This document shows positions 11,863 to 30,335 of a stretch of DNA of 64,000 nucleotides, piece by piece (positions within the stretch are counted from its first letter, which is position 1; the number at the start of each line of letters is the position of its first letter). The notes under the pieces were generated by a model that saw only the letters and a program-made list of their open reading frames with translations, had not been told where the DNA came from and made no database searches. The stretch comes from an uncultured Gemmataceae bacterium (lineage in GTDB: Bacteria; Planctomycetota; Planctomycetia; Gemmatales; Gemmataceae), in NCBI GenBank assembly GCA_963750165.1, contig CAVVPN010000003.1, positions 448,001-512,000 on the forward strand, read 5' to 3'. Position numbers and translations under genes: made by a program.

Positions 11863-13795
11863 ATGCGTCGATCTGTCCGCTTTTTCGTACTCCTCGCCCT
11901 GTTCGGGATCTTCATGAGCGGCGGCCTCGTGACGGCCGGCGACCCGCCGCGGCTGCCGCGCGACAACCTGCTCGTCTACCGCGGCCCGGACGGCAAACCC
12001 GCCCCCGTGAAAAGCGTCGCGGACTGGGCGAAGCGTCGGGCCGAGGTGGTCCGCGGCATGGCGGCAGTGATGGGCAAACTGCCCGGCGCCGACAAGCGCT
12101 GCCCGCTCGACCTGAAGGTACTACGCGGAGGTCGAGGACGGCCCGGTCGTGCGCCGGCTCATCACCTACGCCGCGGAGCCCGGCGGCCGGGTGCCGGCGT
12201 ACCTGCTCATTCCCAGGGACGTGCTCGCCGGCAAGAAAAAGGCGGCGGCCATCCTCTGCCTGCACGGCACGGACAACGTGGTCGGGCACGGGACCGTGGT
12301 CGGCCTCGGCAAGAACGCGAACCGAGCCTACGCCCTGGAGCTGGCCAAACGCGGCTACGTCACGCTGGCCCCGAATTATCCGCTGCTGGCGAAGTATCAG
12401 CCGGACCTGAAAAGGCTCGGCTGGGAGAGCGGGACGTTGAAGGCCGTGTGGGACAACCTGCGCGGCCTTGACCTGCTGGCGGCGCTGCCGTTCGTGGACG
12501 CTGCGAAGGGGTTTGGGGCCATCGGCCATTCGCTCGGCGGCCACAATGCCGTTTACACCGCCGTGTTCGACGACCGCATCAAGGCTGTCGTGTCGAGTTG
12601 CGGGCTGGACTCGTACCTCGACTACTTCAACGGCGACCAGAAGAACTGGGATCCGGAGCGTGGCTGGTGCCAGACGCGCTACATGCGCAAGCTCGCCGAC
12701 TACAAGGGCCGGCTCGCGGACATCCCCTTCGACTTCCACGAGATGATCGGCGCCCTGGCACCGCGGCACGTGTTCCTCATCGCCCCGAAAAAGGACTCCA
12801 ACTTTCGCGCCGATAGTGTGGACCGCATCGCCGCCGCCGCCCGGCCGATCTTCAAGCTATACGGCCATGAGGACCGGCTACGCATCGAGCACCCCGACGG
12901 CGGCCACGATTTCCCGCCGGAGATGCGTGACGCAGCGTATCGGTTGTTCGACGCGGTGCTCAAGGGCGACGGCCCGCGACGGAAAAAGGCGTTGATCATC
13001 GGCATCGACGGTTGCCGGCCGGACGCCCTGCTCGTGGCGAAGGCGCCGCAGCTGCACGGCCTCATCAAGCAGGGCGCCTTCAGTGACAAGGCGCAGACCG
13101 GCGACATGACGGCCAGCGGCAGCGGTTGGGGCAGTCTGTTGACCGGCGTCTGGCGTGAGAAACACGGCGTCCGCGGCAACGACTTCAAGCTCGCCAATTT
13201 CGGCGAGTTTCCTGACCTGCTCACGCGCATCAAGAAGGCCCGGCCCGTCAGCTTCGTCGCCTCGGTCGTCCACTGGGACCCCATTCAAAAACTCATCATC
13301 AAGAAGGCGGACGTGAACGCCGCTTACAAGACGGACGCCCAGGTCGCCACGGCCGCCTGCAAGCTGCTGGGCGAGAACAAGCTGGATCTGCTGTTCATTC
13401 ACTTCGATGATGTCGATGGCGCGGGCCACAAGTACGGTTTCGACCCCATGCAGCCCAGATATCTCGCGGCGATTGCGCAGACCGATGATTACGTGGGAGC
13501 GCTGTTACACGCGCTGGCACAGCGGCCGTCCTACGCACAGGAAGACTGGCTCATCGTGGTCAGCACCGATCACGGCGGGTCGGGAAAGGGGCACGGGCTG
13601 AACATCCCCGCGCACCGGACCATCTTTCTGATCGTGAGCGGACCGTCGGCTGCCCGGGGAACCATCGAGCCGGTGCCGGGCATCGTGGACGTGGCCCCGA
13701 CGGTCTTGCAGCACCTGGGGGTGAGCATCGATGCCCGGTGGCGCCTCGACGGCAAGGCCGTCGGCCTCAAGGCGGTCGCCCAGCGCGCTCCGTGA
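11863..13795 (+). CDS. Secreted alpha/beta hydrolase fused to an alkaline-phosphatase-superfamily (phosphodiesterase/nucleotide pyrophosphatase) domain (frameshift near 12125)
   Basis: Signal peptide; GHSLGG nucleophile elbow and 'GGHDF'; second domain 'IGIDGCRPD', 'DDVDGAGH', 'STDHGG'. Confidence 0.8.
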
Positions 13796-13852
13796 GGCGG
13801 CCGGCTGGAAATAACTTGAATCCGCGCCGGGCCTGGCGCAATGGCCAACCGG

Positions 13853-14189
13853 TTAGGCGTCCGTCAGCGAAACCACGAGACGCTTGCCCACGGCCTCGGC
13901 GTAGCGCACCAGCGTCTCCACGGTGGGGTTGGCGCTGGCCGGTTTCGAGCTTCGAGAGCGCTGAGCGGTCCATGCCGGTCAGGTCCGTCAAGTCGGCCAG
14001 GCTCAGCCCTTTCGCTTCGCGCGCGGCCTTCAGCTGCTGGAGCAGTTCTTGCAACTGGTCCAGGGTGGCCATGCGTTCCTGGTGGCGGGCGACCAGGTCG
14101 GGCAATTCCTCGGCGACCTGCTCTCGGATCGCTTGATACTTGGCGGCTTCTTCAGGTGTTAACTGTCGGTTGCGGGTAATGCGTTTCAT
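13853..14189 (-). CDS. XRE-family helix-turn-helix protein (frameshift near 13935)
   Basis: 'LKAAREAKGLSLADLTDLTGMDRSALSKLETGQR' continuing in another frame as 'NPTVETLVRYAEAVGKRL'. Confidence 0.8.
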
Positions 14190-14827
14190 GGTGCTTGCCT
14201 CCTTACCACCCGTCCCTCGATCCGCAGCCGCCCCGCCGCGAAGAGCCGCACCGCCTCCGGATACGCCTCGCACTCCTGCGCGAACACCCGCGCCGCCAGC
14301 GTCTCCGGCGTGTCCTCGTCGCGCACCTCGACCGCCCGCTGCAAAATGATCGGCCCGTGGTCGTACTCGTTGTCGGCGAAGTGGACGGTGCAGCCGCTGA
14401 TTTTCGCGCCGTACGCCAGCACCGCTTCGTGGACGTGGTGGCCGTAATAGCCCTTGCCGCAGAACGCCGGGATCAGCGCCGGATGCACATTCATGACCCG
14501 GCCCAGAAAATCCGCCGGCACCTCAATCAGTTGCAGGAACCCCGCCAGACACACCAGCTCCGCCCGCGCTTGCCGGCAGGCGTCGAACAGTTTCGCGCTG
14601 AACTCCGCCCGCGACGCACACGCCTTGCGCTCGACCACCACCGTCGGCACGCCCGCCCGCCGCGCCCGCTCCAGCCCCTGGGCGTCCGCCTTGCTGCTGC
14701 CCACGATCACCACTTCAGCGCGCAGCCGGCCGTCGCGGATGCGGTCGAGGAAGTTTTGCAGCGTCGTGCCGCCGCCGCTCAGCAGCACGCCCAGCCGGAT
14801 TGGCGGCCTGTCCTCGTTCATGCTCAT
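14186..14827 (-). CDS. purN: Phosphoribosylglycinamide formyltransferase
   Basis: 'VLLSGGGTTLQ', 'LAGF', 'NVHPALIPAF', 'SGCTVHF', 'DHGPII'. Confidence 0.95.
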   Translation of the reverse strand: MSMNEDRPPIRLGVLLSGGGTTLQNFLDRIRDGRLRAEVVIVGSSKADAQGLERARRAGVPTVVVERKACASRAEFSAKLFDACRQARAELVCLAGFLQLIEVPADFLGRVMNVHPALIPAFCGKGYYGHHVHEAVLAYGAKISGCTVHFADNEYDHGPIILQRAVEVRDEDTPETLAARVFAQECEAYPEAVRLFAAGRLRIEGRVVRRQAP

Positions 14828-21426: not shown

Positions 21427-21584
21427 AACGGCGGAGTTTTTGTGCAGGATGTGGGCGGAAAAGCATCAACCAGCGCCGTCGCCCCAGCGTAGAATGCTCG
21501 GCGGATCGAGAATCACAGTTATCGGCAAACGGGAAGAGCGGTTTCTGGTACACGTCCTTCGGAGCGTTCAGCGGAGGTCCACGT

Positions 21585-22834
21585 ATGCAAGTCCCCGATC
21601 CTGTGCCGTCGCGCAGCCCCTGGTCGCCGATGGGCTACCGCGTCGTGACCGTCGCGGAGGAGACCGGTCCCCCGCAGCCGTGTCCGCAGCCGCCGGCCTC
21701 CCTGAGCTACCGGGTCAACCCGGTGGGCGAGGAAGACGTGCCTCCCCGGCCGCGCGCGGCGGAGCGCTTCCCAGGACCGCCGCGCCGGCTGCTGCGGAAA
21801 CCGCTTCCAGAGAAGTCGCAGTCCAAACCCCTGTGGTGGGCGGTTGTCCTGTTCGGCTCGTTCATGGCCCTGTGCCTGATTGCGCTGTTGATCGGCTCGT
21901 CTGACCGCCGATCCGCCCCGCCGCCGGTCGGATTCGAACCTGAGGTGGTGATAAACGATGTCCGCGGCCCCGAGGTGCGCATCCCCCATGTGCCCCCCGA
22001 GAAGGATGACAAGCCTGTCGCCCAGGTGCCCTTCCCGGACATCCAGGCCGCTGCCGAGAAGAAGGCCGGGCCGCAATTCTTCGGCTTCCCCGCCGCGGAG
22101 GTGTGCAAGAACGACCCACCGCGGCCAGCGCCCGGCGGCCGTGAGACGTTCGGCACCGCCGTGGAGTTCGCCCGCAACCCGCAGGAGGCGGCCCGGCAGG
22201 CGGCAGCGGCTCGCAAGCTCACCTTCCTGCTGCACGTCTCTGGGAACTTTGAAGACGCCGGCTTCACCTGAAACAACGCCGAGCGCTCCGTGTGAACGCC
22301 CTGACCCAGCCCCAGGTCGGACAGTATCTGAACCGTCATTTCGTGTCGGCCTTCCAGAAGGTCGCCACCTTCCAGATCAACGGCGCCGCCAAGCAGGGCG
22401 GCAACGTCGCCGCGTATTTCTGCACACCCGAGGGCCGCGTCCTGCACGCCATCGCCGGCCCGGTGGACGCCGCGACCTTCCTGCGCGAGGCCCGCTGGGC
22501 CAACGAGACGTATCAACTGGCGCTGCTGGACAACCCTGGGCCGCTGCAAGTGCAAGGCTTTTTCCGCAAGGCCCACCTCGACCGGCTGAAACTGGAGCGG
22601 GGGGAACTGCGCCTGGCTGAGAACAAGCTGCCGGCCACGGACGCCGTCAGTGGCAAATTGCTGGATCAGCTCCTGGTGCAGAACCAGAACCTGGGCCTGA
22701 ACAACTCGGGCAAAGTTCACCTGATGCTGACGGTGGGGCCGCTGGCCCGGATCGATCAGGTGTATCGCGTGGTGTTTGAACGCATCCTGGAGGAGAAGAT
22801 CACGACCAACCCGGTGGCCGTGAACGGCAAGTAA
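21585..22834 (+). CDS. Putative membrane-anchored thioredoxin-fold selenoprotein (SelN-like); in-frame TGA at 22269-22271 plus a 1-bp frameshift near 22283
   Basis: GGAGG RBS; TM helix; 'ARKLTFLLHVSGNFEDAGFT-TGA-NNAE(ALR)VNALTQPQVGQYLNRHFV...YFCTPEGRVLHAIAGP' reads as one continuous Trx-like domain. Confidence 0.6.
22283..22299 (+). promoter_or_regulatory. Candidate bacterial SECIS hairpin
   Basis: GCGCTC-CGTGT-GAACGC (one C.A mismatch); loop starts about 18 nt after the UGA with G at loop position 2. Confidence 0.4.
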
Positions 22835-22848
22835 GGATGTGAGAAACA

Positions 22849-22902
22849 ACGGCGCCCGCGGCGCCAGCAAGGGCAGCCTTGCTGGCGCCGTGGGCGCCGG
22901 TT
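22849..22902. terminator. Long GC-rich hairpin between convergent genes
   Basis: CGGCGCCCGCGGCGCCAGCAAGG-GCAG-CCTTGCTGGCGCCGTGGGCGCCG followed by TTTT. Confidence 0.6.
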
Positions 22903-22903
22903 T

Positions 22904-24692
22904 TCAGCGCTGTGGTGCAGCGACCGTCCCCAGATCGTAGCAAGCAATCTCCCGGTCGTTGCGCACGTACAGGCGGCCGTGGGCGACCACCGGATGATTC
23001 CAGGTTTTGCTCGTGAAGACCGCCAACCGTCCCCGTTCCTCGTGCCGCTTCGGGTCAGCCGCCAGCAGCACCACCTCCCCCTGTTCCGACTGCACCAGCA
23101 GCAGCCGCTGCTCCGCCAGCAGCGCCACCTGCCCGTAACCGTAGCGCCCCTGTTTCCAGCGCCGCTTGCCCGTCTCCAGATCGACACAGCAGAACAGATG
23201 GCCGTCGAAGCCGAAGGCGCAGCCGTCCTGCACCACCAGGTCGTTGAACGATGGCCGCAGGTGCCGCGACGACCAGCGCCTCCGCCGTCCGCCAGCCGGT
23301 GCCATCGCGGGTCACCTCGATCAGCACGGTGTCCGCTTCCATGCCGCCCAGCACCAGGATCTGCGACGTGCCGACGAGTTGCGGTTGCAACGAGCGCGGG
23401 CTGCCCCCCGGCAGCGCGTGCTCCCAGAGCACCGCGCCGGTGGCTGGCGCGAGGGCGCTCACGCCGCGGTCGCTGATGAACAGCACCTGTTCCTGCCCGT
23501 CAAGGCGGAAGAGCTGTGGCGAGACGTAACTGTGCTTGCCCACGTCGGCCGTCCACGCCGGCTCGCCCGACACCGCCTGATAGGCGAGCAGGTTTTTCGA
23601 TCCGGAGCCGCCGGCAAAGACCACGACCACCCCCTGCACCACCAGCGGCGAACTGGCGAACCCCCAGATGGGAGCGGTGGCGCCGGCCTCGGCGGCGATG
23701 TCGCGCGTCCAGTGCCGGGTGCCGGTGGCGGCGTCGAAGCAGTTCAGGATGCCGGTCGCCCCCAGGGTGTAGAGCCGGCCCTCCGCGAACGTGGGCGTGG
23801 CCCGCGGGCCGGGGCCGCCCTGACCGTCCGAGAACCGCGCCGCGTCGTGGTGCGCCCACATTTCCGCGCCGGTGTCGGCGTCCAGGCACACGACTGCTTC
23901 CTCCTGGCCGCGCTGCTCCTGCGTGAACAACCGGTTCCCGACCACCGCAACCGAGGACCACGCCGGACCGATGCGCTGCTTCCAGAGCAGCCGCGGCGGC
24001 TGGGCGTCCCAGTCGGTGGCAATGCGGACGCCGCGCACCACGCCGTCGCGCTCCGGGCCGCGGAAGCCGGGCCAGTCCTCCGGCCGGAGATTCAGCGCTT
24101 GAGCGCTGTCGGCGGTGTGGGCGTCGCCGGCGACGTACTCTTGCTCGGCGGTGGGGTTCCAGCGCCAGTGGAAGGCGGGCCGGTAGTCGCCGGTGTCGGG
24201 ATCGCCTTCCAGGCCCTCCATGCGGAGCGTCAGGAAGGCCGACCAGGTTAGCAGCAGCGCCGTCATCAGCCCATACCGGCGCGTGGTTGGGGACGCCCAG
24301 CGGGTGAGCACCAGGCCCACGGCCCAGGCGGTAAGCGCGTACGGCAGCCCCAGCATCAATATGATGCCCGCCGGCACGCTCGGGTCCGCGAGGAGCCAGG
24401 CCAGCAACCCGCCGGCCGTCGCGGTGCCGAACACCAACAGCCGATCCCGCATGGGGATGCGCCGGCTGAAGAACCAGACGCCCAGGAACAGCAGTGCCAC
24501 CAGGAGGCCGGCGCCCATGCGCATCAGGAAGCGCGTGAACCCCTGCAGTTCCATCCAGCCCGTGACGAAAAAGCACCCCCAGTACACGGCGACCAGCGCC
24601 ACCGCCGGCCAGATGCGCGGGCGCTGCGGCGTGGCGGCGGGCAGCCGTTCGGGTTGCGGGACAGGCGCCAGCGGAGACACGTCAACCGTCAT
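22904..24692 (-). CDS. PQQ-binding-like beta-propeller protein with N-terminal TM helices (frameshift near 23260)
   Basis: 'DWPGFRGPERDG', 'GPRATPT', 'WGFASSP', 'KTWNHPVVAHGRLYVRN'. Confidence 0.85.
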
Positions 24693-29925: not shown

Positions 29926-30335
29926 ATGAATAACCCCTGGTATCAGGACGGTCTACATTTCCGCTGCACGCAATGCGGCGACTGCTGCACGGGCGCTGCC
30001 GGCTTCGTCTGGGTGGACGACGCCGAGCTGGCCGCCATCGCCGACTTCCGCGGCGAGGACGTGGCCGAGGTGCGCGGTCGGTACACGCGCTCGGCCCACC
30101 GCGGCGCCACCCTGCGCGAGAAGCTCAACGGCGATTGCGTGTTCTACGACCGCGTCGCCGGCTGCACCATTTACCCGGTGCGACCGCGGCAGTGCCGGAC
30201 CTGGCCGTTCTGGGAGAGCAACGTCCGCACGCCAGAGGCCTGGGAGAAGACCTGCCGCAGCTGCCCGGCGCCGGCACCGGCGACCTGATTCCGGCGGAGG
30301 AGATCACGCGCCGGTTGAATGTGATCCCGTTGTGA
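29926..30335 (+). CDS. YkgJ family cysteine-cluster protein (frameshift near 30265)
   Basis: CTQCGDCC...CVFY...CTIYPVRPRQCRTWPFW. Confidence 0.88.

Follow-up and report, generated by a model that had tools for sequence, protein, structure and literature searches.

A probable selenocysteine codon splits the gene of a predicted membrane-anchored thioredoxin-fold protein in an uncultured Gemmataceae bacterium

Gene layout and conservation of the in-frame UGA

Two adjacent hypothetical open reading frames in the genome of an uncultured Gemmataceae bacterium raise the question of whether the UGA between them is a stop codon or a selenocysteine (Sec) codon within a single gene. The locus lies in a window of 64,000 nucleotides (G000:C3:448001-512000) taken from a 9.6 Mb assembly of 12 contigs with ~66% GC. 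An initial annotation, made from the letters of the window, proposed that read-through of the UGA joins the two frames, that one G is missing shortly after it, and that the product is a membrane-anchored selenoprotein resembling eukaryotic selenoprotein N (SELENON). The comparisons presented here indicate that the TGA splitting this gene is almost certainly a selenocysteine codon in a membrane-anchored redox protein. The active-site domain of this protein is distantly related to SELENON, which in humans is a muscle-disease protein. The features of the locus are as follows, with positions numbered within the window.

21573..21577, plus strand: Shine-Dalgarno-like GGAGG in the sequence, 7 nt before ATG 21585
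21585..22834, plus strand: whole putative selenoprotein gene, called as two ORFs; ~416 aa, provided that the base is missing through an assembly error
21585..21830, plus strand: proline-rich, basic N-terminal tail, predicted to be cytoplasmic by the positive-inside rule
21831..21893, plus strand: single hydrophobic helix (residues 83-103, mean hydropathy 2.5), predicted type II membrane anchor
22140..22534 (approximate), plus strand: predicted thioredoxin-fold domain of the Thioredoxin_7/DsbH/AGR type, from the L066 model, fold matches and HHalign to SELENON
22269..22271, plus strand: in-frame TGA, assigned to selenocysteine from alignments; motif T-U-N-N-A (UxxA, without a resolving Cys)
22282..22283, plus strand: one-base deletion relative to intact homologues, a probable assembly error
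22283..22299, plus strand: putative bacterial SECIS hairpin with a CGUGU loop and a stem of 5 pairs and one variable pair; the missing base forms one more pair in intact copies
22535..22831, plus strand: predicted helical C-terminal extension with the conserved end HxLL...P(L)...VY..VF..IL.E..ST.PV, from the alignment and the L066 model
22850..22866, no strand assigned: GC-rich hairpin past the stop, in the gap separating two convergent genes; by consensus match, resembles a minus-strand terminator

ORF1 extends from ATG 21585 to TGA 22269-71 and ends in the residues ...HVSGNFEDAGFT. This ATG is favoured as the start over ATG 21423 on account of the spacing of the GGAGG element. Past the TGA, the ORF1 frame reads NNAERSV and is closed seven codons on by TGA 22293-95; the ORF2 frame begins one base back relative to it. 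The source genome also contains an intact paralogue on contig C12 (L009; G000:C12:939749-940720, minus strand, ~324 aa), which has a signal-peptide-like start and no anchor and in which FT-TGA-NNAEALRVNAL is read in a single frame. Both halves of the window gene are matched by this paralogue, with near-identical nucleotides 3' of the TGA. An ammonium-transporter-like gene, labelled by reading alone, lies upstream of the paralogue on the opposite strand.

Between the last codon of ORF1 and the GTG of ORF2 the window copy has 23 nt and the paralogue 24 nt; a single base is therefore absent between 22282 and 22283. The proposal of a lost G was thus right about the one-base deficit and less secure about the letter: relatives carry GAA (39) or GAG (30) at this codon, so that the missing base is G or A, and G is favoured because it is present in 26 of the 34 copies having C at the partner position. 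The intact gene would comprise 416 codons, the same length as first estimated. Programmed frameshifting was ruled out as an explanation, since intact homologues need none.

Protein conservation was observed on both sides of the TGA, including N-N-A-x-A-x-R, and the Ala of UxxA is nearly invariant. The site was TGA in 55 of 55 aligned loci (some of them duplicates; one extra row is a shifted frame of L064) and in 48 of 51 rows of a second, overlapping set, the remaining rows having Ala, Ser and Ser. The 51-row set contains the window gene and further loci, namely the 30 best ORF2 matches (the window included) and 20 hand-picked loci that include stop-free ones. Neither aligned set has TAA or TAG at the site. 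Together with the in-frame paralogue, this conservation agrees with read-through across the two ORFs. The closest relatives of the window gene have a single intact frame and a hydrophobic helix 100-180 residues before the TGA, and the anchored form is therefore a genuine subfamily beside the signal-peptide form. The closed genome G108 contains both subfamilies as intact copies.

Using the C12 paralogue as query, matches were found in 86 of 151 genomes of the same bacterial family, spread over 54 of 80 genera (E up to 0.001), and named records with close relatives were mostly from Gemmataceae and other Planctomycetota. A family profile applied at E up to 1e-15 matched 40 of 251 genomes of the class, mainly in the same bacterial family (26 of 53), and 0 of 60 genomes in one other large family of the class. 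Four members (L071, L073, P0014 and P0019) carry an extra C-terminal domain of ~240 aa with no Pfam match. Across 105 loci with flanks of 1.5-4 kb, and shadow frames aside, no neighbouring gene family occurred in more than 6 loci, so that gene context indicates neither a target nor a thiol donor.

Of the 163 aligned stretches in the best 150 of 3305 representative database proteins, 135 start only past the site, as a rule at a Val seven codons on, which indicates that gene callers split these genes, as had been suspected for the window copy. Within the same best 150, 28 proteins span the site, with Cys in 7 and Ser, Ala, Gly, Glu or Asp in 21; stop-free homologues also lack the flanking N-N residues. 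Given these 21 non-Cys versions, part of the family manages without a redox residue. The occurrence of the second half as a database protein of its own from that Val, and the use of GTG in 71 of 73 Val codons, are compatible with two separate genes, in which the TGA would be a real stop and the GTG seven codons on would start the second protein. Such an arrangement is barely credible, however, in that a thioredoxin fold would be truncated behind its first strand, the site is never TAA or TAG, and uninterrupted Cys, Ser and Ala versions exist. The residues between the TGA and the GTG are also conserved as protein, and 10 of 83 copies have Glu, Met, Ala or Arg at the GTG position.

The putative SECIS hairpin, the Sec machinery and integrity of the window copy

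A hairpin with the loop CGUGU, G being its second base, follows the UGA at a distance of 17 nt in the assembled sequence and of 18 nt in intact copies. The accessible text of a 2026 review describes bacterial SECIS elements as having a 3-9 nt loop with G in the first two loop positions, a spacing of 16-37 nt, a stem of 4-16 bp and a folding energy of at most -7.5 kcal/mol (PMC13188914). Intact copies have the CGUGU loop at 18 nt with 5-7 pairs, and the energy is -7.5 kcal/mol or lower in 77 of 83 of them. RNAalifold applied to 80 of 85 distinct loci returned this hairpin as the only structure. Over its 7 pairs, 84.8% of cells were paired and two-sided changes occurred in 4 pairs (G-C to C-G, and A-U at a synonymous Ala position), with 0 of 500 shuffles as high. 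A control slid by two positions had a higher covariation score (0.163, compared with 0.146 for the hairpin) but was only 58% paired and had no two-sided change; at one stem position of the hairpin a mismatch was the commonest state (51 of 80). Synonymous codons are frozen at +5 to +9 only, namely GCG in 77 of 83 copies (background 28%), CTC in 66 of 68 (32%), CGT for Arg in 82 of 83 (7%) and GTG in the 71 of 73 Val codons given above (31%). The pattern used for locus selection fixed the first 11 nt from the TGA and not these codons.

The hairpin of the window copy as assembled folds at -3.5 kcal/mol (z +0.87) and falls short of the -7.5 kcal/mol bar, compared with -13.4 kcal/mol (z -1.77) for a natural relative with the base present and -9.6 kcal/mol (z only -0.28) for the intact C12 paralogue. 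The case for a SECIS element therefore rests on covariation and codon freezing and not on the energy of single sequences, and from this conservation we strongly infer that Sec insertion is guided by the downstream hairpin. The hairpin first proposed for this locus was accordingly upheld in its place, its second-position loop G, the 18 nt distance and the additional pair made by the missing base; in the window copy as assembled it is weak.

The source genome contains selA, selB, selD and tRNA-Sec (selC), all over cut-off, completing the set of Sec genes that the initial annotation had named as a check. A second 'SeC' tRNA called by ARAGORN on C11 was rejected as it was without Rfam support. A cluster of 16 tRNA genes occupies 1.6 kb elsewhere in the genome (G000:C10:88560-90125). 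As nearly all genomes of this bacterial family have selA (141 of 151), co-occurrence within it says little. Of the 86 family-positive genomes, 3 yielded no selA, although selB is present in all 3 and tRNA-Sec is over cut-off in 2. Across the phylum sample, 60 of 60 genomes whose superfamily match bears a TGA have selA, versus 298 of 401 Planctomycetota overall, in a tally made by hand in which kin genomes are not independent and the TGA position was checked one by one for fetched loci only. Genomes with only stop-free superfamily matches had selA in 6 of 10 cases and were without it in 4 of 10. The presence of Sec in the family is held with very high confidence. A superfamily gene lies at most 7 kb from selA in G095:C338 and G442:C23, which may be chance.

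Whether the window copy itself is intact depends on the origin of the one-base gap. Frameshifts were found in 11 of the 93 genes of the source assembly that were comparable with proteins of two relatives (11 per 103 kb, a figure for this assembly alone), and in 2 of 29 genes in a smaller trial. The former rate gives a roughly one-in-eight chance for a gene of this size. The remark that such indels are common in the window thus holds for the assembly with respect to frameshifts. A short frame 3' of the TGA was found in 8 of 85 distinct copies, the window copy among them. Of the other seven, one lies at a contig edge and six come from assemblies made up of long or few contigs or from the same record series; the long-contig assemblies with broken copies are presumably long-read assemblies. 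In another assembly (L064:4145-4170) one base is missing at the identical spot after the UGA, which, together with the window gap, suggests a recurring, sequence-specific base-calling fault in the SECIS stem. A search of sequencing reads covered one run at a 0.05 share of words, with no RNA set listed; of three read contigs, the one crossing the junction was from a relative, with 7 differences in 60 nt and an unlike upstream region.

As an alternative, the selenoprotein family could be real and the window copy a recent true pseudogene, with translation ending at TGA 22293, a crippled SECIS and the C12 paralogue intact. The deletion does stand in the assembly and weakens the hairpin to the value given above, an intact paralogue is available on C12, and the anchored subfamily is patchy in distribution. 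A pseudogene is nevertheless quite unlikely when set against the frequency of frameshifted genes in this assembly, the long-contig, few-contig or contig-edge origin of post-TGA-broken copies, the identical gap in L064 and the state of the rest of the gene, in which no further lesion was seen and ORF2 is 68% identical to L066 across 178 residues. Assembly error is the likelier explanation because 11 of 93 assembly genes are frameshifted, and we regard the gap with good confidence as an error of this kind.

Other genes of the window show similar interruptions. The convergent downstream gene for a PQQ_2 beta-propeller membrane protein (22904-24692, minus strand) is split across two frames, both parts of which match PF13360, a probable second frameshift within 1 kb. 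An HTH antitoxin-like gene (13767-14273, minus strand) and a CxxCxxCC gene (29926-30335, plus strand) each look frameshifted near their ends.

Predicted fold, topology and chemistry

An AlphaFold2 model was obtained for L066, the closest intact orthologue, with a pLDDT of 91.6. Residues ~6-139 of the model superimpose on 3F9U with Z 12.4 and rmsd 2.2 over 107 aligned residues, and the last 100 residues are helical. The nearest solved folds are of the Thioredoxin_7/DsbH/DsbD-gamma/AGR2-3/UAS types (3F9U, 2LST, 3IRA, 3PH9 and 2KUC; Z 9-12). In an alignment of the family profile with 2KUC (E 0.008), Sec falls on the first Cys of CGPC and Ala on the second, which, with the model, places the TGA at the redox site after the first strand of the fold, as originally described. 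On this modelling a thioredoxin fold is predicted with hardly any doubt. Sequence matches to these exported folds are weak (2KUC as above; PF13899 in 4 of 41 members, E 0.02), and the family differs from them in having UxxA for CxxC, a long insertion before the active site and an extra helical domain. The family has no dithiol CxxC or UxxC motif.

The window copy has one hydrophobic helix, and the 20 residues before it contain 6 K/R and 1 D/E, in line with the single membrane anchor claimed at the outset. By hydropathy and charge this would be a type II anchor similar to that of SELENON, and it is absent from the signal-peptide subfamily. Export of the protein is considered highly probable.

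In the mechanism that we propose, SelB-tRNA-Sec would read the UGA as selenocysteine with the hairpin 18 nt downstream as guide. The N-terminal helix would anchor the protein in the inner membrane and display the thioredoxin-fold domain outside the cytoplasm. Sec would take the place of the attacking residue, and Ala that of the resolving Cys of thioredoxins. The selenolate would attack an exported target protein at a disulfide or an oxidised Cys, and an external thiol donor would then free the selenolate from the resulting mixed Se-S bond. Choice of the target is probably made by the helical C-terminal part. A mono-selenol mechanism is proposed because the family has no resolving or adjacent Cys and because the Phe-Pro-Val loop of SELENON aligns to Gly-Asn-Val, the latter in low-confidence HHalign columns. 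Thiol-redox catalysis is the likely, predicted function.

Sec could instead be inserted into a protein whose chief role is binding or chaperoning, in the manner of AGR2 or UAS domains; the selenol would then serve for redox sensing or tethering and not for catalytic turnover. The nearest folds do include AGR3, UAS and DsbH-type domains, no resolving Cys is present, Gly and Asn occur at the SELENON Phe-Pro-Val loop, and the 21 of 28 stop-free homologues without Cys keep a binding role open, as many of them have Ser or Ala. We consider such a module unlikely as the main role, since nearly every copy, over some 50 genera, retains Sec and a dedicated SECIS. The loss of the flanking N-N from the stop-free versions is likewise what would be expected of copies that had decayed or been put to another use. 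The best overall explanation, in which we have fair confidence, is one gene with Sec read-through that encodes an inner-membrane-anchored, exported mono-selenol oxidoreductase, the window copy being likely intact.

Relation to SELENON and to other planctomycete branches

The SELENON set used for comparison came from a short motif scan of metagenomes that returned 31 loci: 29 eukaryotic-looking ones, a single bacterial one (L173) and one match due to chance. One full-length eukaryotic-type sequence retrieves hundreds of proteins, many named selenoprotein N, and the identity of the eukaryotic sequences as SELENON rests on such named matches. The family profile scored 21-32 bits over ~60 residues on 11 transcript-like SELENON sequences versus 19 bits for the best PDB chain, one sister-family row in the profile being of slight help to the SELENON scores. 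HHalign aligned the family with the SELENON domain at 97% (E 8.9e-11, 99 columns), Sec on Sec and with L-R at +6/+7; the sister family described below aligned with SELENON at 96% and with the present family at 99.9%. In the reverse direction, a SELENON-domain profile run against 61,027 six-frame segments of the source genome had the C12 paralogue as its sole significant match (E 0.0016; E 0.04 in another SELENON-profile search), and the five Thioredoxin_7 proteins of that genome were not matched. Among PDB chains the SELENON profile matched no thioredoxin and no solved relative of the domain by sequence. The SELENON-domain and family models have identical nearest solved folds.

In 10 of 401 Planctomycetota genomes the SELENON profile matched genes that are much closer to it (E 1e-18 to 1e-35, one TGA each). 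With one metagenomic locus, these make up 11 bacterial genes that match the SELENON N-terminal region at E 5e-8 to 2e-22; with that region as phmmer query (P0164 residues 91-400), the best E among ORF1, ORF2 and the paralogue was 0.38. In animals this region, which lies between the anchor and the Sec domain, includes an EF-hand; no Pfam EF-hand was found in the ORF halves or the paralogue. A tree was built from 64 rows and 148 columns (15 of 41 family members, 16 of 31 sister-family members, 13 animal sequences, the 11 bacterial orthologues, 4 Leu-Sec sequences and 5 outgroup sequences). Animal SELENON and the 11 bacterial orthologues formed a 100/99 branch that excludes the family, which itself formed a separate long 96/99 branch; deeper forks and the root were poorly supported and the outgroup branches long.

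The family and SELENON have in common a homologous thioredoxin-like Sec domain and a single membrane anchor with Sec on the far side, SELENON being described in the accessible text of PMC12839072 as having an SCUG motif and a single anchor with its domain on the far side. They differ in that the family is without the SELENON N-terminal region or an EF-hand, has Thr-Sec-Asn-Asn-Ala in place of Ser-Cys-Sec-Gly, has one extra residue before Sec and probably no cis-Pro, and carries its own helical C-terminal extension and a bacterial in-frame SECIS. Sequence comparison thus indicates that the family shares ancestry with the SELENON Sec domain as a side branch, that is, domain homology and not orthology, because the N-terminal region is absent, Thr-Sec replaces Cys-Sec and closer bacterial orthologues exist. 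The resemblance to SELENON in the initial annotation was therefore justified for the Sec domain and did not extend to the whole protein. Direct orthology of the window gene with the same job as SELENON, for which the Sec domain in register and the single anchor with its far-side domain (PMC12839072, accessible text) would speak, is very unlikely against the N-terminal result and the 100/99 grouping.

The hairpin after the UGA of animal SELENON (SRE) has been likened to a bacterial SECIS in the accessible text of PMC12936836. With regard to the SRE as a SECIS relic, 21 eukaryote-type sequences (no vertebrate DNA) gave mixed folds with no common loop position.

Neither Pfam nor NCBIfam (June 2026) has a family for the halves, the paralogue or the family alignment; the best thioredoxin-type NCBIfam match to the alignment was NF041383 (1 of 41 members, E 0.14). 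Catalogued thioredoxin-fold selenoproteins (VPGUxxT NF041382/3, Trx7/PDZ NF041199, TsoX NF045809 and thiol:disulfide interchange-like) are similar in fold, in having Sec at the first redox position and in their coding-region SECIS, but no listed motif equals T-U-N-N-A. In the accessible text of PMC13188914, neither the names nor the motifs in a 2026 table of 119 selenoprotein families point to a SELENON-like or planctomycete entry, and the string 'planctomycet' occurs 0 times. Split thioredoxin-like selenoprotein candidates of a planctomycete are listed in the accessible part of PMC4807772. Term searches gave 0 matches in the text and 4 supplements of PMC12013277 and nothing relevant in PMC9312934. 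No description of the family or of bacterial SELENON was found in the literature searched, subscription papers and theses falling mostly outside it. Word-index searches, which are weak by design, returned 1 and 2 proteins from the sister alignment and L173 without reaching SELENON, and an ESM Atlas query with a natural Cys homologue returned only unnamed bacterial clusters (0.90-0.91).

This is almost certainly a real bacterial selenoprotein family, absent from the curated lists searched, of a known mechanism class (thioredoxin-fold selenoprotein with coding-region SECIS). It adds a common selenoprotein family, found in over half the genomes sampled from one planctomycete family, often multi-copy and split by gene callers. 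Aerobic bacteria are said to rarely keep selenoproteins in the accessible text of the 2026 review (PMC13188914), whose silence there on planctomycetes contrasts with the 298 of 401 sampled Planctomycetota that have selA. The biochemistry of SELENON is still called enigmatic (PMC12936836, accessible text). The small exported bacterial relatives, natural Sec, Cys and Ser variants and true orthologues are tractable for structure and substrate trapping.

Three further branches were found. The sister family (L102:284-1882; L115-L144), with G.LD.EFC-Sec or ..S-Cys, occurs in 53 of 401 genomes of the phylum, and TGA (20) and TGY (10) alternate at the same site among its 30 loci. With Cys in 7 of the 28 spanning proteins as well, the expectation of a TGA or Cys codon conserved in frame was borne out. 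Against curated families no sister-family match was over cut-off (best E 2.8e-4). A fourth branch (L188-L191) is of the LDDGL-Sec-SAGHSLR type, has its own hairpin and is sister to the SELENON clade at 93/82.

The full-length bacterial SELENON orthologues are L177-L186, in the 10 Planctomycetota genomes, and the metagenome contig L173:1170-2393 (minus strand). All have in-frame TGA and SECIS-like hairpins. They resemble the window family in domain, TGA position and similar hairpin spacing, three having the same CTCCGTG core, and differ in keeping the N-terminal region and Cys-Sec and in grouping with animal SELENON. Bacterial SELENON orthologues as such may not be new, and a doctoral thesis reportedly contains one in Poribacteria. 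We give about an even chance to a putative, so far unrecognised SELENON superfamily of exported selenoproteins in Planctomycetota, with at least four branches (Thr-Sec, multi-copy in Gemmataceae; Cys-Sec/Cys; Leu-Sec; and full-length orthologues with animal SELENON nested among them). If this is true, animal SELENON would derive from an exported selenoenzyme of bacteria, and its chemistry would become accessible to direct test in soluble bacterial members. The metagenomic orthologue L173 has a lipoprotein-like start and adjoins pilin-like genes.
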